From: a phage
Sequence record: PZ386977.1
DNA length: 64,000 nt
Reading direction: 5' to 3' (one strand)
Made by a program: the position numbers and the translations under genes. Below, piece after piece: positions 3,923-31,093 of the stretch. Position 1 is the first letter of the stretch, and every line of letters starts with the position of its first letter. The notes under the pieces were generated by a model. The model saw nothing but the letters and a program-made list of their open reading frames with translations. It was not told the DNA's origin and searched no databases.

Positions 3923-6634
3923 TCAAAAATCGAACATATCGAACAGAGATGCTTTCTTCTCGTAATCGAGTTTCGCTGCTGATGTGAATCCTTCAAGTGG
4001 TTTAATAAATGTCTTCTCAAGGAGAACAGTGTAGTCCATCCAATGAAGTACGTCGTCTTTAATTAAATCTGTGATTTCAGTACCAGAAGGCCATGCGATA
4101 CATTTATCACCGAATGGGTTTCCTTCACGTAAAGGCAGAACATATACCTTTTCGCCTTCTACAACTTGTGGAGCATCAATATTACCTTTGATAGCCCGGT
4201 TATACGTCAGAATTCCACGAATATGGAACGGACATTTTGGACCAGGGAATCCACCTACATCATATTTAGCAATGTTATTCGCAGAAGATACCGACGCGAT
4301 GCTAATATAATTCAATTGACGGAATTCTTTTTCAAACTCTTTAAAATATTCTTGTAATGATTCTTCACCTTCTTGAAGCATACGACGAATACATTCTTTA
4401 AGAGCTTTCTGTACCGCTTTAGGAGTTGAAGATTTCTGTGTTTCGAGACCCATGATTTTGAGTTTAGGCTCAGCGTAACGAGTACCTTCCATATCCCACA
4501 CGTTTAATGCGTAACGTTTCTTACCAGTCCAGAATCCACCAATACCTTTAGAGCCAAGTGGAGGACCAGCGATAGCTTCTCGGTCCATGAACATTAAGTG
4601 TTGTTTATTGTTCATGTATTCACACATTTCACGGAAACCTCTATCAATAGCAGGTTCCATACGTTCACGAGCGAACTTATCTAAGAAGTCCACCCAATGG
4701 TTGGTATCACGGAATTTAGATTCACCAACCTTATCAATAATTTTATCAGCAGATACGTAAATAGAGTCTGTATCACCATATAGAACGAAAGCTTCACCTT
4801 CTGTACCACAAACTTCATTCAGATATTCATTAACTTTACGTTCAATCCACTGTAAAGCCATTTGCCCGAATGTTGTGATTGCAGTAGCATTACGCAAATC
4901 ATAATAACGGAACCAAACGTTGCCAAGTGCACCATAAAGTGAGTTGATAAGCAATTTACGGTTAATTTGTGCAGTCATACCTGCAACTTCAGTACGTTGA
5001 GCTCTAAACAACATTTCATTAAGAGATTTAGCAGACAACTTTTTAATCTTTTCTTTAATCTCATCGCTGAAGTCGAAACGATAATCAACATCTAACGGTT
5101 CGTCAACAGAAAGATTAGGATTATGCAATGCCTCTTTAATTATTTCACCATTACGTTGAGCTGCAAGCATGTAACCTTTATGTTCTTTACGTTGATTAAA
5201 GACCTTAGTGATTTCAGTTGGAACTACACCATCACGGTCTTTATAATACATCATGCCATTAGGAGAGCAGCTGTACACATCTGAAGGACGTTCAGCGATT
5301 GCGTTAATATAATCATGCAATGGAGCTACTTTAAACGTTCCTGCTATTGTTTCTGGGCTAATATTCACTTGGCGAATAATACTTGGATACAGAGATGTAA
5401 GGTCGAAACTCATTACATATTTGTATCGATTTGGAATAGGTTCCTTAACAAAAGCGCCAGGATAAGGTTGAACCGGGTGAGAACGACCTTGTGGAATCAC
5501 CTTGTTCTGCTCTTTAAGGCTATTAAAAATAATAGCATCCCATGTTTTAATTGGGCTGAACACAGATTGAATCTGTATCTTAGCATAATAACCCATGTCC
5601 AAACTCAAGTTGATGAACTGGCGCTTAGCATCAATTTGCAATACACGATACACGTCGATGATGTTATAAGAAATATATCGTTGGTGATTGCTTTCACGAA
5701 GCTTAGAAATAGGGCCGTCATATTTCAGTTTACCAACGTTCAATTCAAATTCTGAAATGTAATCCAGAGAATACGACGGTTGATTAGTAAAAGAGAATTT
5801 TTTGTAAAGGTCAATGTAATCAAGAACAGAGATACCGAACAATGTAATGATTTCACGAGAACCATACATGTTTTCGATAACTTTAACACGAGTTTTACGA
5901 TGTGGTGATAAACGTTTCGCAGTAGATTCACCAAAAATATTCTTGATTCTGTTATACACATATGGAATATCAAATGACTCAACGTTCCATCCAGTCAAAA
6001 TGACAGGAGTTTTCTGTTGCCAGAAGTTGAGATATTCCATCAACAATTCTTTTTCGTTATCGAACGGCATATAAATGATTTTATCGATAATTTCAGATGG
6101 AACTTCATCACCACCTTGTTCTTGAAGCTTAGCAGCGATTTCAATAGACCATTCTTCCACATTGCCGTATGGAGAATTCAATAGATCAAATACATAGAAC
6201 CTGTCGTCAATTGAGTCATAATGGGTGATAGCATCAATCGGATGTTTTGCTTGTGACGGCTCAGGGAACCCATCCGGAGATGTTACTTCGATGTCGAAGT
6301 TAGCCACACGAATTTTTGTATGGTCGTATTTGATTTCATAGTTATAAGTGTCAGACAAATACGCCAATTTGAAATCGTCCATGCCAAGTGCTTCAAGTCC
6401 GATATCTTCCATGCGTTTAATCCATTGGGAGGCATCACGCATATTAGCGAACAACTTACGAGTACACGGCTTACCGTAGATATCGAAATATTTCGTGGCC
6501 TGACTTTCTGGACAATGAGCAAACAATGATGGTTTATATTCTACTTCACGAGTACGTTCACGGCCATTAGAATCGATGTAACGTTCAAAAATTGAATCAC
6601 CAATCTGTTCAACCGTTAAGTAAAATTCTTTCAT
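3923..6634 (-). CDS. 43: DNA polymerase, family B (gp43)
   Basis: 903 aa; exo motif FDIEV; polymerase motifs SLYPS, KILINSLYG, YGDTDS, KKRY; N-terminus MKEFYLTVEQIGDSIFERYID matches my recollection of RB69 gp43. Confidence 0.97.
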   Translation of the reverse strand: MKEFYLTVEQIGDSIFERYIDSNGRERTREVEYKPSLFAHCPESQATKYFDIYGKPCTRKLFANMRDASQWIKRMEDIGLEALGMDDFKLAYLSDTYNYEIKYDHTKIRVANFDIEVTSPDGFPEPSQAKHPIDAITHYDSIDDRFYVFDLLNSPYGNVEEWSIEIAAKLQEQGGDEVPSEIIDKIIYMPFDNEKELLMEYLNFWQQKTPVILTGWNVESFDIPYVYNRIKNIFGESTAKRLSPHRKTRVKVIENMYGSREIITLFGISVLDYIDLYKKFSFTNQPSYSLDYISEFELNVGKLKYDGPISKLRESNHQRYISYNIIDVYRVLQIDAKRQFINLSLDMGYYAKIQIQSVFSPIKTWDAIIFNSLKEQNKVIPQGRSHPVQPYPGAFVKEPIPNRYKYVMSFDLTSLYPSIIRQVNISPETIAGTFKVAPLHDYINAIAERPSDVYSCSPNGMMYYKDRDGVVPTEITKVFNQRKEHKGYMLAAQRNGEIIKEALHNPNLSVDEPLDVDYRFDFSDEIKEKIKKLSAKSLNEMLFRAQRTEVAGMTAQINRKLLINSLYGALGNVWFRYYDLRNATAITTFGQMALQWIERKVNEYLNEVCGTEGEAFVLYGDTDSIYVSADKIIDKVGESKFRDTNHWVDFLDKFARERMEPAIDRGFREMCEYMNNKQHLMFMDREAIAGPPLGSKGIGGFWTGKKRYALNVWDMEGTRYAEPKLKIMGLETQKSSTPKAVQKALKECIRRMLQEGEESLQEYFKEFEKEFRQLNYISIASVSSANNIAKYDVGGFPGPKCPFHIRGILTYNRAIKGNIDAPQVVEGEKVYVLPLREGNPFGDKCIAWPSGTEITDLIKDDVLHWMDYTVLLEKTFIKPLEGFTSAAKLDYEKKASLFDMFDF

Positions 6635-6715
6635 TTAATTTCCTTTAGACGAGTTATTGTCTTTTGTTTGTTGATGAACTTATTATACTCCAAATGGGAC
6701 CGGAGTCCCATTGCT

Positions 6716-8689: not shown

Positions 8690-9376
8690 TTAGAAGTCGT
8701 GAGTAGAATCGGCTTCCATTGCAATAACATAACTTACTTGAGAGCTTTCAAACTTGGCTGCAACTTTATCACCAGCTCCCCACAACATTACTTTATAGTT
8801 ACCTGGCTGGATTTTCATATTAGCCATATTGATTACGAAGTTAAAGTTATTAGAACCATCATAATCGGTAAGAGTCAAAGAATACTTAGGACGAGTCAAG
8901 CCAGAATCTTCAACTTTATTGTAACCATTGATAACAATTTTACCATCTTTATTTGTAATAGCAATTGTATCAATCTGGAGACCACGTGAAACTCGAAGCA
9001 ATTGTTGAAGGTCTTCAGCTTTAATTTCAGTAATCACAGAAGCCACTGGGAATTGAATTGGCTTATTAGGAAAAACAATGGTGCTCTTGTCGGCAGCAGG
9101 CCAATAAACTGTGGAACGTGTATCTGCAATTTTAATATTGCCGTCAGTGTGCATTGAAATTTCAGCATCATCAGACACTAGACTCAAAATGCTTAAGAAG
9201 CTATTCAAATCATAAAGTGCTACGTCAAAATCAATTTCATCAGAGATATTTGCTTCCGCATAAGTGGTGCCATTAACTGCACGAGTCATAATAAATTTAC
9301 CTTGACTCAACAGAATGCCGGAGTTAATAGAGGCAAAGTTTTTCAGAATAGCGATAGTATCTTTAGACAGTTTCAT
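8690..9376 (-). CDS. 45: sliding clamp gp45
   Basis: MKLSKDTIAILKNFASINSGILL; 228 aa from internal ATG, T4 gp45-like. Confidence 0.9.
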   Translation of the reverse strand: MKLSKDTIAILKNFASINSGILLSQGKFIMTRAVNGTTYAEANISDEIDFDVALYDLNSFLSILSLVSDDAEISMHTDGNIKIADTRSTVYWPAADKSTIVFPNKPIQFPVASVITEIKAEDLQQLLRVSRGLQIDTIAITNKDGKIVINGYNKVEDSGLTRPKYSLTLTDYDGSNNFNFVINMANMKIQPGNYKVMLWGAGDKVAAKFESSQVSYVIAMEADSTHDF

Positions 9377-9417
9377 TTTATTTCCTTTCAAGACAATTCA
9401 AAGTTTAAAAAAATTTA

Positions 9418-9834
9418 TTATGCAGCAACCATCTGCTTTTTAATAGCTTCAGGCAGTGATTCAATATATTCTGGAATTTTAGAAGCAACAATTTCGCCAG
9501 CTGCAATTAGTTGTTCGTCGGCATCAACACAATAGAAATCTTCCAGGCGCTCAGAACCATCTTTATCAAGAACGATTTTTCCACCAGCTTCAATAGAATC
9601 TTTATAGTGCTTACGCATCAGATGAATCCACATATCAGATACATCGTTATCAATAAAACCATAAATCATAAAACGAGTTTCTTGTGGCAAAGATTGAAGC
9701 TTTTTAGCACTTGCGTCATCACAATGCAGGACCCATGCTTTACGAACACGATTATGGTTATGCGGGTTAGCGTCAGTACGGATAGAAGTAACTTTCAGAT
9801 CAGCAGCAGTGAAACCTTTAGCAGTAGTAAACAT
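9418..9834 (-). CDS. rpbA: RNA polymerase binding protein RpbA-like
   Basis: 138-aa ORF in rpbA position between 45 and 46. Confidence 0.55.
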   Translation of the reverse strand: MFTTAKGFTAADLKVTSIRTDANPHNHNRVRKAWVLHCDDASAKKLQSLPQETRFMIYGFIDNDVSDMWIHLMRKHYKDSIEAGGKIVLDKDGSERLEDFYCVDADEQLIAAGEIVASKIPEYIESLPEAIKKQMVAA

Positions 9835-9846
9835 ATTATTTCTCTC

Positions 9847-10038
9847 TTATTCGTAGAAGTCAGTAACTGTCCATGCGGAATTGCGATTAGACATTATTTT
9901 ATTATACTCATCTTTAAAAGCAGATTTGAGCATTTGTTCAGTAACAATATGTTCTTCACCTGAAAACGTATTGGTCAAAACATATTTTTTAATTTCAGGA
10001 ACAACGAGAAGATGTTGTCCGGTTGAATACTCCGCCAT
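9847..10038 (-). CDS. hypothetical protein (45.2-like)
   Basis: 63-aa ORF, syntenic small gene. Confidence 0.5.
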   Translation of the reverse strand: MAEYSTGQHLLVVPEIKKYVLTNTFSGEEHIVTEQMLKSAFKDEYNKIMSNRNSAWTVTDFYE

Positions 10039-10115
10039 TATAAATCTCCGTGTTTAAAGCAATATAAATAGGTTTATCAATTTATCTGTTGCTGTATCAA
10101 ATAAGGATTTAGTAA

Positions 10116-10832
10116 ATGAATTATAACTCAATATACGAAAAGCTTATCACCAATGCTAAATCAAGAAGTTTAGATGGTTATACAGAACGTCATCACATTA
10201 TACCACAATGTTTAGGTGGAAGTGATGATGCTTTAAACTTAGTAGACTTAACACCAGAAGAACATTATTTGGCACATCAACTGTTGGTAAAAATCCATCC
10301 AGATAATGCCTCTTTAATATATGCTGCTCGTATGATGACCATATCATCTCCTAAAGCAGATAGAAGCAAAAACAAATTATTTGGATGGCTTCGACGTAAG
10401 AATCAGGAAGTTCAAAAGAATAAAGAATTCACTGCTGAAACCCGTAAGAAAATGTCCGAGTCTGCAAAAAATAAACCAAAGATTACCTGTCCACATTGTG
10501 GTTTAACTGGAACTGAAGGAAACATGCGACGTTGGCATTTTGATAATTGTAAACAAGGTCCAACGCCTAAAATAGTAAAATTATCTGATGATGAAAAACA
10601 GAGGATAAGTTCTAAACTTAAAACAATAGAGTGGAAACTCCACACATGTGTACACTGTGGTCTAGAAGGAAAAGCTTGCAATATAGTTCCTCATGAGAAA
10701 AACTGTAAACTTAATCCTAATAGAATAAAACCTAATGTAACAATAGTGGAATGTCCATACTGCTCTAAAAGTGGTTCTATATCAAATATGAAAAGATGGC
10801 ATTTCGATAATTGTAAATATAAGCCTCATTAA
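10116..10832 (+). CDS. HNH homing endonuclease with triplicated zinc-finger motif
   Basis: ERHHIIPQCLGGSDDALNLVDLTPEEHYLAHQ HNH core; three CPHCG/CVHCG/CPYCS...RWHFDNCK repeats; AAGGA SD before ATG; only plus-strand gene in a minus-strand block. Confidence 0.85.
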   Translation: MNYNSIYEKLITNAKSRSLDGYTERHHIIPQCLGGSDDALNLVDLTPEEHYLAHQLLVKIHPDNASLIYAARMMTISSPKADRSKNKLFGWLRRKNQEVQKNKEFTAETRKKMSESAKNKPKITCPHCGLTGTEGNMRRWHFDNCKQGPTPKIVKLSDDEKQRISSKLKTIEWKLHTCVHCGLEGKACNIVPHEKNCKLNPNRIKPNVTIVECPYCSKSGSISNMKRWHFDNCKYKPH

Positions 10833-12517
10833 GAGGCTTTCATTACAGTAAATCGTCCAACTTTACTCATCTGAAGATGTTGTCCATACGCTTGTGGGTC
10901 ATGGTCTCTGTGACTAATTATAAACACGTTTGCATCGGTTAGAGAGTTAAGAATTGTTGAAATAGCTTTAATACCTTCAGAATCAGTCGCGGAATCCATG
11001 ACTTCGTCCATAATTAATGTATTGATTCTAACACCAGAGACCTTTTCAGCAATATCTCGCCATGTAAACAACAATGCGATATCGATACGTGCCTTTTCAC
11101 CTTGACTAAATGAAGCATAACTAAAATCTTCACGACCACGTGATTTTATAGATTCATTGAATTCTTCGTCAATAGAAAACACATAATCAGCTTCCATGAT
11201 TTTAAGGTAATGGTTAATCTGCTTGTTGAACAGAGGCACATATTTTTTAATGATAGCACCTTTAATACCAGAATCTTTTAACATATCTGTGATAATACCA
11301 CGATGGTATTTTTCAAGAACGATATCTGATTTTGTTTTAATGATTTTATCAAGTTCTTTTTGAAGCAAAGCTATCTCATCGGCATGGTCGATAAATTCAG
11401 CTGAGGCTTGTTCTATTGCAGCTTTAACTTTCTTAGCTTTATCAATAGTGGCAATCATTGCTTGTTTCTTGGTACGAATATCAGATGCAAGGTCCTGTTT
11501 AGTCTTAACATTAGCTCTATATTCGTCCACTAGGACACTCAGATTATCTCTGTGAGAGGTAAGTTGCTCGAATGAGTGATTACATTCATGAAGCTTATCG
11601 GTAATCTTAGAGACAATAGGATCACCCTGGTGCAACTGTGATGCACAAGTAGGACATGTGCCACCGTCATGATACATCTTAATAACTTTGTTATATGAGT
11701 CGATTTTAGATTTAATCAAGAATGCTTCTTGTCCGATCTTGTTGAATGCCTCAGTAGGGTCTTCGTCAAGAACGATATTAAGTAGACGCTCGTTAGCTTC
11801 TTCAATTTCTGCTTTTAATGACCGAGCTTCTTTGGCTAGGTCGTCATACATATTCTGTAGACGCGCTACATTATCACCAGATAATTTCTTTTGACGTTCG
11901 ATATTCTCATTATAAATCTTAATTTGTTGGATAACACCATCTTTCTTGGCATCGAGAACTTGTCCCTGGGAATTAAGTTCTCGAACTTGAGACTTATTGA
12001 TTTTATCCATTTCGGCAAGTGTTCCAACTTCTAATAAGTCTTCAACAAGCTTTCTGCGAGCAGGGGTGCTAAGAGCCATGAAAGGGGTATACCCTGCCGT
12101 CCCAAGCACAACGATCTGTTTAAAAGACGCGTATGACATTCCGATGCTACGTTCAAATTCTTCTTGGAAGTCGCGACTGCTGGCAGATTCATCAAGACGA
12201 ACACCGTCAACGGAGATTTCGAAAATATTGGGCTTTTGGCCACGTTTAATGAAGTATTTTTTATCATCGAATTCCATCCAAAGCTCAACTAAGAGCTCTT
12301 TCTTGTTCGTGCTATTAATGATTTGTCCTTTCTTAACATCACGAAATGGTTTACCGAAAAGTCCGAAAGTAATGGCTTCTAACATCGTAGATTTACCACC
12401 GCCATTTTTACCAGTGATTAATGTCTTTTGGACTTTATCTAATTGGATATCAATAGGATTCCCACCTACCGACATGATGTTTTGATAACGAACACGATTT
12501 AATTTAAATGATTTCAT
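10829..12517 (-). CDS. 46: recombination endonuclease subunit gp46 (Rad50/SbcC-like)
   Basis: 562 aa; Walker A GKNGGGKST, long coiled coil, C-terminal signature/D-loop LIMDEV. Confidence 0.95.
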   Translation of the reverse strand: MKSFKLNRVRYQNIMSVGGNPIDIQLDKVQKTLITGKNGGGKSTMLEAITFGLFGKPFRDVKKGQIINSTNKKELLVELWMEFDDKKYFIKRGQKPNIFEISVDGVRLDESASSRDFQEEFERSIGMSYASFKQIVVLGTAGYTPFMALSTPARRKLVEDLLEVGTLAEMDKINKSQVRELNSQGQVLDAKKDGVIQQIKIYNENIERQKKLSGDNVARLQNMYDDLAKEARSLKAEIEEANERLLNIVLDEDPTEAFNKIGQEAFLIKSKIDSYNKVIKMYHDGGTCPTCASQLHQGDPIVSKITDKLHECNHSFEQLTSHRDNLSVLVDEYRANVKTKQDLASDIRTKKQAMIATIDKAKKVKAAIEQASAEFIDHADEIALLQKELDKIIKTKSDIVLEKYHRGIITDMLKDSGIKGAIIKKYVPLFNKQINHYLKIMEADYVFSIDEEFNESIKSRGREDFSYASFSQGEKARIDIALLFTWRDIAEKVSGVRINTLIMDEVMDSATDSEGIKAISTILNSLTDANVFIISHRDHDPQAYGQHLQMSKVGRFTVMKAS

Positions 12518-12768
12518 ATGTATTCTCTTCGAATGAAGTCCTCTACATATTTTAACATGTCATCTCTATCAGCAAAATATTCATCTAGTTCTGCATACAT
12601 AACAACACCTGGTGCGTACTCACAGGTAACATACATTGTTCCAAAGAAACGAGGAGTTGATTCCTCGTAATTCTCAGTCCATTCAACGATACCAATATAA
12701 CCGTCACCAATACTAAATTCATGACGATGGATTTCATAATCAGTCTTCGTCATTATACGCATCCTCAA
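12514..12768 (-). CDS. hypothetical protein (46.1-like)
   Basis: 84-aa ORF, ATGA overlap with 46. Confidence 0.5.
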   Translation of the reverse strand: MRMRIMTKTDYEIHRHEFSIGDGYIGIVEWTENYEESTPRFFGTMYVTCEYAPGVVMYAELDEYFADRDDMLKYVEDFIRREYI

Positions 12769-12997
12769 TACACGCTTCGGCCATTTTAAGAATAGAGCCA
12801 GGAGTATCGTTGTCCATTATATTAAAGCTAAATTCAATAGCCCAGTCGGTACAGACATGAACGGCTTTAACTTCATTGCCTTCAACGCGTAATGGCTCAA
12901 TCCAATACTTGATAGTGTTCTCGAATCCATCATCATCTTTAACGTCCATTTCAACTTCAAGCCTGAGTCCAGCATTGTTAAATTCATCTAAAGTCAT
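12740..12997 (-). CDS. hypothetical protein (46.2-like)
   Basis: 85-aa acidic ORF. Confidence 0.5.
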   Translation of the reverse strand: MTLDEFNNAGLRLEVEMDVKDDDGFENTIKYWIEPLRVEGNEVKAVHVCTDWAIEFSFNIMDNDTPGSILKMAEACIEDAYNDED

Positions 12998-14013
12998 TGT
13001 GTTGCCTCAATATAAAGTTCGTTGGAATATTTGACCAGCGCTTCTCTGTCTTCGTCTGAGATATCTGGAATCGCGTCAATATATTCTTTAATGATATCTT
13101 GAAGTGATTTAATCTCGATTTCCTGGTCGTCATCAGATTCAACACTGTTATCAACTTTAGAAACCATACGAAGAGAGTGAACTACTTTTTCAAGTTCAGA
13201 TTCAAACTTAGTCAACTCTGAATCAATTTCTGATACTATAACACGTACGGCTAGATTAGTATAATCAGAATAATTGATTTTGCCTTTAAACGGATAAGTG
13301 ATTCGTCGATGCCATGTTGTTTCATTAGGAATAAATTCCATACGTTCAACATCGGTGTCAAATACCCAGAATCCTCGAGGGTCGTTTTCATCACCTGCAG
13401 TAAGGGTCCATGGTGTCCCAATATATTTGACATTAGCAGCTTCAGAGATTGTGTGGAAGTGGCCAGACCAGACTTGTTTATAGGTCTTTAAAAAATCAGG
13501 TTCAAGCCCATGAGACTTCATTCCTTTATAGAAATAAAAACCATTCAGTTCCCAGTGCCCAACACAAAAAGAAGCAGATGAAGTTTTGATATGTTCAAGA
13601 ATTTCACCAGTATTTTCTTCGCACATCCAAGGAATTAAATCAATCAAACATCCGTCAAAATCTACTGTAGTAGGCTTATCATATACTTTAACATTAGGAT
13701 ATTTAGCTAAAAGCTCAGTAGAAGCGTTTGGAGTTAAAGTATTTTTAAAGTGCATATCATGGTTTCCTACAACAGTATGTAGGGTAATACCAGCATCATC
13801 AAGCATTTGAACTATTTCACGTGCGAACTCCATAGTTTTATGCGTGATTGCTTTTCGCACATCAAAAATATCGCCGTATTGAATCCATGTAGTAATTCCA
13901 TTTTTCTTAGAATATTCTATCGCCTGCTTAATTCCATCCAACTGAATGGATTGAACCCACTCATCATCGGCTTTAACACCTAAATGCCAATCACCTAAAT
14001 TTAAAATTTTCAT
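12994..14013 (-). CDS. 47: recombination nuclease subunit gp47 (Mre11/SbcD-like)
   Basis: 339 aa; phosphoesterase motifs LGDWH, GDIFD, GNHD, GHFH. Confidence 0.95.
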   Translation of the reverse strand: MKILNLGDWHLGVKADDEWVQSIQLDGIKQAIEYSKKNGITTWIQYGDIFDVRKAITHKTMEFAREIVQMLDDAGITLHTVVGNHDMHFKNTLTPNASTELLAKYPNVKVYDKPTTVDFDGCLIDLIPWMCEENTGEILEHIKTSSASFCVGHWELNGFYFYKGMKSHGLEPDFLKTYKQVWSGHFHTISEAANVKYIGTPWTLTAGDENDPRGFWVFDTDVERMEFIPNETTWHRRITYPFKGKINYSDYTNLAVRVIVSEIDSELTKFESELEKVVHSLRMVSKVDNSVESDDDQEIEIKSLQDIIKEYIDAIPDISDEDREALVKYSNELYIEATQ

Positions 14014-29633: not shown

Positions 29634-30623
29634 TTATTTATAGTAAGAATTATGATTTTCGAGATAGACTTGCTCAAGGAAATCATCCCAGAAACTCATA
29701 TCTACTTTTTGTTGCATACCGTTCTTAGCGGCTTGTTCTGATGCTTGTTCAACTTGGTCAACGATATCTTCTAGGAATTCTTGTACAGTTTTAAACGTAT
29801 GTTTACCAAGCTTAACATCGAGAATAAATGGAGCATCCTGAAGCGGGTAAACCAGGTCGCCGGTTTTGTAAATTTCCAATAATTGAAGTCCACCACGACA
29901 TGCATGACTCAATGCTTTCCAGTCAATACCTTCGTTAGCTTCCGCCTTACGAGCACGTTCACCATAGTTCTCTTCCAGTTTAACCAGGATGGCATTGAAC
30001 TCTTTATTGGTTAACGTGTCTTGGAATTTACGGTCTAACAGATTATAGAATGTTTGCTTACCTGTTTTCTCGTTTTCGGTTTCAACCCATGAAGCAAATT
30101 CACCTACAGGCAGAACATTCTTCATATGTGATAAACGAATTACTGCACCATTATCAAAGTATTGTCCCCATTCATTAGAACGTTTAAGGGCTTGACGAAG
30201 AACAGCCAGTCGAGAACCCTTGACACCGTATTTAGAAGCTTGCTTACGGACATACCCTAAATAAGATTTCATGTTAGTGGTATAGAAACGAGACCTGTTA
30301 TCTTGAATATACTTCCATACATCAGGCAAATCAGATTTAACTACTAGACTTGGTGGAGTGTGAAGCATATCTAATGCAACAGTTTCACCATCCGCAGCTA
30401 GTTTAAAGAAATATTTGAGACTATACAACTCATGGTCCACGTCGTCTTTTGTGTTCTTAGAAGATGTGTTATTCGTGTTCTTGCTCATATGTTCTTTAAC
30501 GTTACCTGTCAAGATATCACGAGCATGAGGGACATAAATTTCTTTAAAATCAACGTCAGATTCAGGAGTAGATGTTCCATAAAGGTGGCTACCAAAGTAG
30601 CTTTTCATAATTGTTTTCATCAT
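29634..30623 (-). CDS. Pol-beta-superfamily nucleotidyltransferase
   Basis: 329 aa; YFGSHLYGTSTPESDVDF = G[S]x10DxD motif, downstream LDML acidic motif. Confidence 0.55.
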   Translation of the reverse strand: MMKTIMKSYFGSHLYGTSTPESDVDFKEIYVPHARDILTGNVKEHMSKNTNNTSSKNTKDDVDHELYSLKYFFKLAADGETVALDMLHTPPSLVVKSDLPDVWKYIQDNRSRFYTTNMKSYLGYVRKQASKYGVKGSRLAVLRQALKRSNEWGQYFDNGAVIRLSHMKNVLPVGEFASWVETENEKTGKQTFYNLLDRKFQDTLTNKEFNAILVKLEENYGERARKAEANEGIDWKALSHACRGGLQLLEIYKTGDLVYPLQDAPFILDVKLGKHTFKTVQEFLEDIVDQVEQASEQAAKNGMQQKVDMSFWDDFLEQVYLENHNSYYK

Positions 30624-31093
30624 TTAGCCTTATATTCAAGAGTAGGACAGACTTTTTCTTTACGAGCTTTAAGGTATTCACTTATTAATGATTTCTTACG
30701 TTCAATAGGCTCAAGTCCATTTTTAATTCGTTCTTGGTTTTGCGCAATGAGCTCAATTTCTTTATAATATTTTCTGTCGTTATATTTGTCTAACAACCAA
30801 GACGGACCAATTACCAACCCGGTAGCAATAAAAGCCATGACTGCTACAATTAAAATGCCTACACCAATTGAGGCTGGAACTAATGTCCATAGACTGCTAA
30901 AAACAAAGAATTTAGTTAAAATTTCGTGGCCAAAGATTGTGACTGCTGCTAAAATCGCAAATCCAATAATTGAAACAGCCAATACCGGGATTAACGTTTT
31001 CCAAAAATAAGCACACAACGTTTTCGGACGATTCCATGTACTATTGAACGCGGCATAAATTTTAAAGTGCCAAGAGTTTTCATTGATAATCAT
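30620..31093 (-). CDS. membrane protein
   Basis: 157 aa with three hydrophobic helices. Confidence 0.5.
   Translation of the reverse strand: MIINENSWHFKIYAAFNSTWNRPKTLCAYFWKTLIPVLAVSIIGFAILAAVTIFGHEILTKFFVFSSLWTLVPASIGVGILIVAVMAFIATGLVIGPSWLLDKYNDRKYYKEIELIAQNQERIKNGLEPIERKKSLISEYLKARKEKVCPTLEYKAK

Follow-up and report, generated by a model that had tools for sequence, protein, structure and literature searches.

The window, that is the whole 64,000-nt stretch of DNA that was analysed, represents an RB69-like T4-type phage of the genus Mosigvirus. The region 9400-11400 shares 98.2% identity with Mosigvirus mar005p1, and its flanks are about 98% identical to RB69. The genes and features of the locus are listed in Table 1. 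The ORF studied here starts with ATG, encodes 238 aa and lies antisense between the minus-strand genes 45.2 and 46, exactly as described in the first-pass annotation. It was also claimed there that no other plus-strand gene interrupts some 54 kb of minus-strand genes, and it is indeed the only credible one, since the remaining plus-strand ORFs of at least 70 aa in 1..54.6 kb (9511, 38775, 39695, 44393 and 48158) are either shadow ORFs or have no PHROG match, and the equivalent ~45 kb of the annotated relative a20 contain one further plus-strand call, a 66-aa overlapping hypothetical. The stop codon of the ORF lies inside gene 46, as had been noticed, with the overlap amounting to 4 nt (TTAA, 10829-10832, both stops counted), near the 3 nt given before.

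Table 1 Features of the 45.2/46 locus in the window and of the endonuclease encoded there
Feature	Coordinates	Strand	Remarks
rpbA	9418..9834	-	5.6e-48
Gene 45.2	9847..10038	-	Pfam Gp45_2 2.3e-28; divergent neighbour; start region is a candidate target; junction at codon 2
Whole mobile cassette, ~806 bp	10033..10840	.	Replaces ~67 bp of RB69 (54-bp 45.2/46 spacer and adjoining gene ends)
Cassette left end	10033..10049	-	45.2 start codon 10036-10038, extra Ala codon 2 10033-10035, RBS GGAGA 10045-10049
Late-promoter motif TATAAATA	10063..10070	+	T4 late-promoter consensus, 46 nt upstream of ATG; predicted endonuclease promoter
Shine-Dalgarno AAGGA	10103..10107	+	8 nt before ATG; AGGA kept in homologues
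Endonuclease ORF	10116..10832	+	ATG start, 238 aa; Mob-family HNH homing endonuclease (nuclease function predicted)
HNH (beta-beta-alpha-metal) domain, aa ~20-60	10173..10295	+	H26 H27 N41 H50 H54; predicted strands 24-27, 42-45, helix 47-60
Helix aa 105-118 and zinc finger 1 (C125, C128, H141, C145)	10428..10550	+	NUMOD3-type repeats are aligned opposite the helix in some relatives
Variable C-terminal module, aa 156-228: helix 2, finger 2 (C178, C181, H193, C197), most of finger 3	10581..10799	+	Swapped relative to the a20-type allele
Zinc finger 3 (C213, C216, H229, C233)	10752..10814	+	Ligands invariant in 40 sequences; predicted beta-beta-alpha unit
7-bp hairpin AAGCCTC/GAGGCTT	10821..10839	.	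Spans both stops (TTAA); folds on both strands
Cassette right end	10829..10840	-	Gene 46 stop and last three codons recoded
Gene 46	10829..12517	-	Pfam AAA_23/SMC_N; recombination nuclease subunit, Rad50/SbcC-like; convergent with the ORF; candidate target at its extreme 3' end

The boundaries of the cassette were drawn from an alignment with a20, mar005p1 and RB69 and from the junction sequences of 10 carriers and 3 non-carriers. The junctions are identical in 10/10 carriers, ESCO47 included. The gene had been regarded as an insertion between 45.2 and 46, and the cassette is indeed absent from relatives, but what took place is a replacement recoding the ends of both neighbour genes. All carriers possess a 45.2 gene that begins with M-A-E-Y and has its own GGAGA ribosome-binding site, while it begins with M-E-Y in the non-carriers RB69 and T4; gene 46 ends with K-A-S-stop in carriers, with T-V-S-stop in RB69 and with S-V-S-stop in ATK47. 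The spacer replaced contains in RB69 and T4 a MotA-box-like GCTTTA followed, after 11-12 bp, by TATAAT, and also a hairpin, so that, judging by consensus, the cassette seems to have displaced a middle promoter of 45.2/rpbA.

The late-promoter motif TATAAATA at 10063-10070 is the only plus-strand copy in 1..54.5 kb, and its position is kept in homologues, with a perfect match in IME281, fFiEco06 and Roth77 and 6-7 of 8 positions matching in ERR11042067, RCIP0009 and leB. The hairpin over the stop codons has a folding energy of -13.3 kcal/mol (z = -5.7 on the plus and -5.4 on the minus strand), and homologues contain a hairpin at the same place with different stems, namely GACCTC/GAGGTC and TAGCTA/TAGCTA. 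Because both recur in homologues of other genera, the motif and the hairpin are likely to be functional parts of the element, the latter being likely a bidirectional terminator or a 3' stabiliser for the convergent transcripts. No significant RNA structure was detected in the 5' UTR (z = -0.5), scans for sigma-70-type promoters and terminators gave no enrichment over shuffles, and a search of 9300-11600 against Rfam returned neither a group I intron nor any other family; the ORF is intergenic and antisense, not embedded in an intron. The idea that the 5' UTR might act as an operator mimic, resembling the homing site as in I-TevI autorepression, was rejected, as the cassette promoter and 5' UTR matched the cassette-free locus no better than shuffles did in both the Mosigvirus and the Tequatrovirus pairs.

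The endonuclease and its zinc-finger tail

The 238-aa protein matches PHROG 655 ("homing endonuclease") at 8.8e-65 and has 2708 homologues at E<=1e-10 in a large protein collection, many of them with Pfam NUMOD3, which by the measure of these matches places the gene far beyond chance. With tblastn, 1111 phage records were matched; the T4 and T6 mobE locus is one of the matches (E 1e-25, 33% identity across 99% of the length). Among the predicted viral structures of BFVD there are 88 matches at E<=0.001, including T4 MobB (3.6e-10), T4 MobC (9e-9) and an I-TevIII homologue (7e-7). A direct single-protein sequence search against PDB gave nothing significant.

The HNH core consists of the motif ERHHIIP followed by N41, H50 and H54, and the residues H26, H27, N41, H50 and H54 are all present and invariant in a family alignment of 40 sequences, which bears out the HNH catalytic core recognised earlier. 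In Pfam searches no HNH match above threshold was obtained with the whole protein (HNH_5, E=0.069, 13.5 bits against a cutoff of 27.5), and the isolated HNH domain stayed below the cutoff too (HNH_5, E 0.0033, 17.8 bits; HNH, 16.6 bits against 21.4). Since 26 of the 40 aligned relatives do match Pfam HNH (PF01844) at E<=0.01, membership of the protein in the HNH superfamily rests on transitive homology. The family profile matches the HNH motifs of the group II intron maturase 6me0 (E 0.0018) and of McrA (E 0.0057), and local structural matches of the domain include Cas8-HNH and GVE2 HNH. In the AlphaFold2 model, which has a mean pLDDT of 89, a beta-beta-alpha head is predicted around the HNH motif, followed by two long helices and three strand-strand-helix zinc-finger units.

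The order of the domains is HNH core, helix, zinc finger, helix, zinc finger, zinc finger. Three tandem CxxC...RWHFDNCK repeats had been reported, and there are indeed three sets of C-x2-C...H-x3-C ligands (125/128/141/145, 178/181/193/197 and 213/216/229/233), each predicted to form a strand-strand-helix unit, but RWHFDNCK ends fingers 1 (C125..C145) and 3 (C213..C233) only and is represented by VPHEKNCK in the degenerate finger 2 (C178..C197). The ligands and the modelled fold are those of beta-beta-alpha fingers of the CCHC/C2H2-like kind, and zinc binding is predicted on this basis. The array weakly resembles those of the CTCF type (E>=0.025), and Pfam zf_C2H2_6 remained below threshold in the window protein. 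No match to NUMOD3 (PF07460) was found, either with the whole protein or with the isolated helices at aa 99-125 and 151-177; this domain is present in 15 of the 40 relatives, where it is aligned opposite the helix/zinc-finger tail of the window protein, so the likeness is positional only.

Compared to the a20-type protein, the window protein shows 100% identity in aa 1-155 and 47% in aa 156-238. Among 50,697 phage records, only mar005p1 shares the DNA of the finger 2/3 module, and no other DNA donor of this module was found in them; the nearest protein module to aa 156-238 (71% identity) belongs to the metagenomic phage contig ERR11042067 and resides at the same locus. Another combination is represented by P0004, with 96% identity in the head, 63% in the middle and 47% in the tail. 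The putative DNA-binding modules have thus evidently been swapped between alleles on a constant nuclease head.

Distribution of the cassette and its candidate target

The gene is found at this locus in 14 of the 571 phage records matching the 2-kb region (12 distinct genomes), while RB69, HX01, ATK47 and many others match the flanks only, with about 98% identity. A lack of insert-free alleles among relatives would have spoken against the first-pass reading; such alleles exist in exactly these genomes, and the reading is not refuted. At the Tequatrovirus level, 60 of 532 records are carriers, with the same site and orientation. Homologues with 44-67% identity are situated at the same site, antisense and convergent with gene 46, in Dhakavirus IME281, in Tequatrovirus fFiEco06, RB33, N2 and ev240, in the Klebsiella phages Roth77 and RCIP0009, in Pseudotevenvirus leB and in a metagenomic T4-like contig. 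The M-A-E-Y junction of 45.2 is common to the Tequatrovirus carriers as well (fFiEco06 compared to T4). A search of IMG/VR for cassette-free alleles keeping the MAEY junction, performed with a degenerate left-junction pattern, produced 96 matches, all of them by chance in unrelated contigs. The idea that T4_ev240 is T4 that took up the cassette in the laboratory was rejected: its provenance could not be traced and it differs from T4 by 2-5% throughout, being simply another T4-like phage, and therefore gives no experimental evidence of transfer.

All 10 Mosigvirus alleles are full length. Over codons 1-155 these alleles contain 28 variable codons with synonymous changes only against 4 with non-synonymous ones, a pattern of strong purifying selection on the endonuclease protein as read from the codon counts. 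The catalytic residues and zinc ligands are all kept in 9 of the 10 alleles, the exception being ESCO47 with H27Y in the His-His pair, so the ESCO47 endonuclease may be inactive. The left flank of ESCO47 (45, rpbA, 45.2) is 10-19% divergent from every other genome up to the junction, with the cassette differing by only about 1.5% from that of ST0; hence the edge of the cassette is a recombination breakpoint between different backgrounds.

The insertion had been called recent, and this is not supported: within Mosigvirus the diversity of the cassette is about that of its flanks, and the homologues with 44-67% identity occupy the same site in several other genera. Because they also hold the same orientation there, the association with the 45.2/46 site is old. 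On the alignments available, the 45.2/46 endonucleases are a site-faithful lineage of Mob proteins with a long-standing link to the locus.

Carriers and non-carriers were compared with regard to the sequence around the cassette. In Mosigvirus (10 carriers and 7 non-carriers, 8 kb) there are zero fixed differences outside 10033-10840, that is, no flanking haplotype is linked to the cassette, and so the population bears no footprint of recent co-conversion. A dense private haplotype does exist in this material: in F2 and G2469 it adjoins another endonuclease gene, of the MobD-like kind, at about 12401-12731, which means that linked tracts are detectable when present. If it is a sequence difference that protects the carriers, the site concerned has to lie at least partly within the segment replaced, which is made up of the 45.2 start, the intergenic spacer and the 46 stop. 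In Tequatrovirus, the comparison of four carriers with T4, T2 and HY01 revealed 23 fixed carrier-specific differences, all in the last ~190 bp of gene 46, with none in 45.2 or rpbA and none elsewhere (3.9 kb, 605 variable sites). The gp46 tail of these carriers resembles that of the Klebsiella phage Roth77, as if it had been brought in together with the cassette. The linkage in Tequatrovirus comes from 4 carriers and 3 non-carriers.

The target is likely to be the junction of the 45.2 start and the 46 stop. It had previously been placed in or near gene 46 or rpbA. The end of gene 46 stays a candidate, but rpbA is unlikely, as the differences between carriers and non-carriers are confined in Mosigvirus to the stretch from codon 2 of 45.2 to the three final codons of 46, and in Tequatrovirus extend to the last ~190 bp of 46 as well. 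From these small samples (10 against 7 and 4 against 3) we infer that the gene 46 end of the junction is a more probable place than rpbA.

Proposed mode of action and alternatives

It is quite reasonable to suggest, with a probability of about 0.8, that the locus harbors the cassette of a free-standing T4 Mob (HNH) homing endonuclease which is part of a lineage tied specifically to the 45.2/46 junction and consists of an HNH head and a tail of two helices and three CCHC fingers. The first-pass annotation had already proposed a free-standing homing endonuclease of the T4 mob type, and the proposal is supported by the similarity to MobE, the fold matches to MobB and MobC, the presence/absence polymorphism and the purifying selection. 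By its sequence relationships the product belongs among the free-standing HNH homing endonucleases of the T4 Mob family, with the nuclease function predicted.

The mode of action would be as follows. Transcription would take place late from the cassette's own promoter, TATAAATA, antisense to the early/middle 46-45.2 unit. In a mixed infection the finger/helix tail would bind the cassette-free allele at or next to the 45.2-start/spacer/46-stop segment, in the 3' end of gene 46 or in the spacer, and the HNH head would nick one strand, by analogy with MobE and MobA, a double-strand break being less likely. Recombinational repair from the carrier genome would copy the cassette into the recipient. 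Carriers would presumably escape cutting, since they lack the ~67-bp segment and have recoded ends in both genes. For a site-specific nick or cut in the endonuclease-free allele and for preferential inheritance the support is indirect and comes from the cassette-linked tract at the 3' end of gene 46 in Tequatrovirus and from the breakpoint at the cassette edge in ESCO47.

There are observations that speak against this reading. The protein stays below every Pfam HNH and NUMOD3 threshold, no flanking haplotype goes with the cassette in Mosigvirus, and the carrier frequency, roughly 9-12% of records, is lower than would be expected of a drive element that meets no opposition. The antisense orientation, which is unlike that of all T4 mob genes, speaks against a homing reading of the Mob type. 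In the literature search, no report on the activity, expression or inheritance of any member of the 45.2/46 lineage was found.

It is unlikely that the gene is a retired homing endonuclease without a drive of its own, persisting as the cassette supplies the 45.2 start and ribosome-binding site, the 46 stop and the hairpin, although the low carrier counts (14/571 and 60/532 records), the lack of a cassette-linked flanking haplotype in Mosigvirus and the H27Y change in the catalytic pair of ESCO47 would all be consistent with that. Simple deletion would then damage the neighbours, because the cassette carries their ends, and it has also displaced the MotA-box and TATAAT-like middle promoter of RB69 and T4. 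Despite that, 28 synonymous against 4 non-synonymous codons, full length in 10/10 alleles and ligands kept in 9/10 would be unexpected if only the ends of the cassette mattered, and its presence on clearly different backgrounds (ESCO47) and in several genera points the same way. As a single plus-strand ORF within a long block of minus-strand genes, the ORF could be taken for a chance antisense frame, a mis-assembly or a foreign fragment instead of a phage gene; this explanation is refuted and its probability is practically nil in view of the 2708 homologues at E<=1e-10, the same cassette in 12 independent phage genomes, the codon-level purifying selection and the confident fold prediction.

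Another suggestion, which we regard as quite unlikely, is that the gene was co-opted by the phage, either as a competition nuclease acting in marker exclusion or as an antisense/hairpin module tuning 46, 45.2 and rpbA, with homing being secondary. The conserved antisense convergent layout, the late-promoter motif of its own, the hairpin kept with changed stems across genera and the purifying selection agree with it, and homing endonucleases are known to exclude T2 markers in T4 x T2 crosses (PMC2988022). However, most relatives have no cassette, which gives no sign of an essential or strongly beneficial role, nothing in the sequence goes beyond the ordinary by-products of homing, and the 5' UTR has neither significant structure (z = -0.5) nor resemblance to the cassette-free locus.

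The homing endonuclease reading can also be extended. The 45.2/46 lineage might be one of natural modular zinc-finger nickases in which helix-plus-finger units are exchanged behind an unchanging HNH head and at an unchanging site; the window allele would have been re-tooled by joining a20-type aa 1-155 to a foreign finger 2/3 module, the swapping would track or escape changes of the target, and the late antisense promoter together with the stop-codon hairpin could modulate gp46. The latter is the Rad50-like nuclease subunit on which T4-type homing itself depends. Taken as a whole, this extension is rather unlikely. The natural exchange of finger modules behind a constant HNH head could be instructive for designing sequence-specific nickases.

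For annotation, recognition of the cassette explains the local strand switch, the recoded gp46 tail and the displaced promoter in an RB69-like genome. The main value lies in the correct labelling of a selfish element, which is mostly housekeeping with a modest added value. Lying beside gene 46, the cassette also points to a recombination hot spot among genes on which phage phylogenies are based. The 45.2/46 lineage represents an uncharacterised, site-faithful branch of the Mob proteins with natural pairs of carriers and non-carriers (a20 or the window phage and RB69; RB33 and T4 or T2), and these pairs make it a convenient system for the question, posed in the T4 literature, of how homing is promoted by Mob enzymes that nick.

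Comparison with known homing endonucleases

The closest known systems include the same-locus homologues that have already been annotated, namely a20_170, RB33_055, those in F2 and NHEP10, and leB B_058 ("Mob-like HNH homing endonuclease"). They have the same site, orientation, length (~238 aa) and architecture as the window gene, the a20 type sharing its first 155 residues, and the window allele is distinguished from them by its finger 2/3 module, common only to Mosigvirus mar005p1.

Mob proteins have a common HNH head and variable C-terminal DNA-binding regions (PMC2790892, PMC2988022). MobE nicks T2 nrdB, for which the HNH motif is required, and both MobE and MobA nick one strand of the endonuclease-free allele, with preferential inheritance achieved via recombinational repair (PMC2790892, PMC2988022). 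T4 MobE, whose gene is located between nrdA and nrdB, shares with the window gene 33% full-length identity, the N-terminal HNH head and C-terminal DNA-binding tail, the free-standing position between conserved genes and the variable presence among relatives. In contrast to the window gene, mobE is promoterless, co-oriented with nrdA and nrdB, translationally coupled to nrdA and possesses an internal terminator, whereas the window gene is antisense, convergent with gene 46, furnished with its own late-promoter motif and ribosome-binding site, and both neighbour ends are recoded. The insertion site is another one and presumably so is the target, and the activity demonstrated for MobE is predicted here. 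T4 MobA, MobB, MobC and MobD belong to the same family as the window protein, with an HNH head, a variable C-terminus and, for MobB and MobC, the fold matches given above, but their genes are co-oriented with their neighbours and none lies at the 45.2/46 junction, where T4 itself is cassette-free.

All T4 homing endonuclease genes are co-oriented with their neighbours except segD, and most mob genes are promoterless (PMC2988022). Co-orientation, which is typical of T4 mob genes and not strictly defining, is absent in the gene at 10116-10832; its antisense, self-promoted layout is therefore atypical for the family, though not unprecedented in kind, segD being the exception. The segD gene, like the window gene, is opposed to its neighbours (genes 23 and 24) and is the sole such gene of T4. 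It encodes a nuclease of another family (GIY-YIG), no segD-specific promoter has been found and its expression is thought to be negligible, while the window cassette evolves under purifying selection and contains a late-promoter motif that is conserved.

I-HmuI nicks one strand. I-HmuI and I-TevIII resemble the window protein in having a modular HNH head and an extended DNA-binding tail, and an I-TevIII homologue is among the fold matches (7e-7); both are intron-encoded, whereas the window gene is intergenic, on the opposite strand and without an intron match in Rfam in 9300-11600. I-TevIII makes a double-strand break, while enzymes of the MobE type appear to nick. The window gene falls into a well-known class, of which it is an ordinary representative, and several relatives in GenBank already carry the label "homing endonuclease" for it; it is mildly unusual in its antisense self-promoted layout, the recoding of both gene ends, the stop-codon hairpin, the fidelity to one site across several genera and the swapped finger module.

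Promoter-like elements and the endonuclease 5' UTR

In genomes without the cassette, that is, the approximately 806-bp replacement at the 45.2/46 junction carrying the Mob-family HNH endonuclease gene, the 45.2/46 spacer contains a MotA-box-like GCTTTA followed after 11-12 bp by TATAAT (RB69, locus L015, 3640-3700; T4, locus L123, ~6588-6642; L-numbers denote loci of related phages, each with its own coordinates), and in both phages the same spacer also holds an 8-10 bp hairpin. From its sequence, this arrangement looks like a middle promoter of 45.2/rpbA which was lost in the carriers. GCTTTA, 12 bp and TATAAT are present again on the minus strand of the window (10036-10063), where the -10 element TATAAT overlaps the 45.2 start codon and the pair is therefore unable to serve 45.2.

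The 5' UTR of the endonuclease gene contains the motif TTTATC..(T/C)GC.GTATCAAA..AGGA, which is kept across genera (window 10063-10115; homologous loci L018, L019, L022 and L023), the proteins encoded behind it being merely 56-76% identical. No structure is predicted for it, and it does not resemble the cassette-free locus.

Endonuclease alleles and extra genes in related phages

The ESCO47 allele of the 45.2/46 endonuclease (L010, 3702-4418) carries H27Y in the catalytic His-His pair and may be an inactivated copy with an otherwise intact ORF.

Two of the carriers, F2 (L004, 6106-6966) and G2469 (L005, 6105-6965), possess a second homing endonuclease gene, "MobD-like", which replaces 46.1 between 46 and 46.2 at a site matching ~12400-12770 of the window, and N2 and T2 likewise have an endonuclease gene just past gene 46. 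F2 and G2469 also share a dense private haplotype spanning about 12401-12731 in window coordinates, which looks like a co-conversion tract.

Phage a20 harbors an extra "homing endonuclease" gene, a20_210 (L025, 24469-25251), which is co-oriented and located after the nucleotidyltransferase gene; it has no counterpart in the window (~30620), where 29634..30623 is directly followed by 30620..31093. In G2285 (L009, 2109-2998), the annotation places two additional ORFs between gene 45 and rpbA; both are missing from the window and from the other Mosigvirus loci examined.

Mosaic blocks in genes 46 and 47

Over 13400-14000 the window diverges from RB69 and ESh15 by ~28-30%, whereas the adjoining stretches differ by only 1-4%; this segment is another mosaic block of the 46-47 region.

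Window features adjoining the gene 46 region
Feature	Coordinates	Strand	Remark
46.1	12514..12768	-	ordinary form
gene 47	12994..14013	-	5' half makes up most of the divergent block

The last ~300 nt of gene 46 are mosaic even in cassette-free Tequatroviruses (T4, L123; T2, L126; HY01, L127), with T2 showing ~17% difference from T4 and HY01 at this 3' end and having a gp46 tail similar to the Mosigvirus version. Such mosaicism among genomes free of the cassette suggests repeated gene conversion at the 3' end of gene 46.
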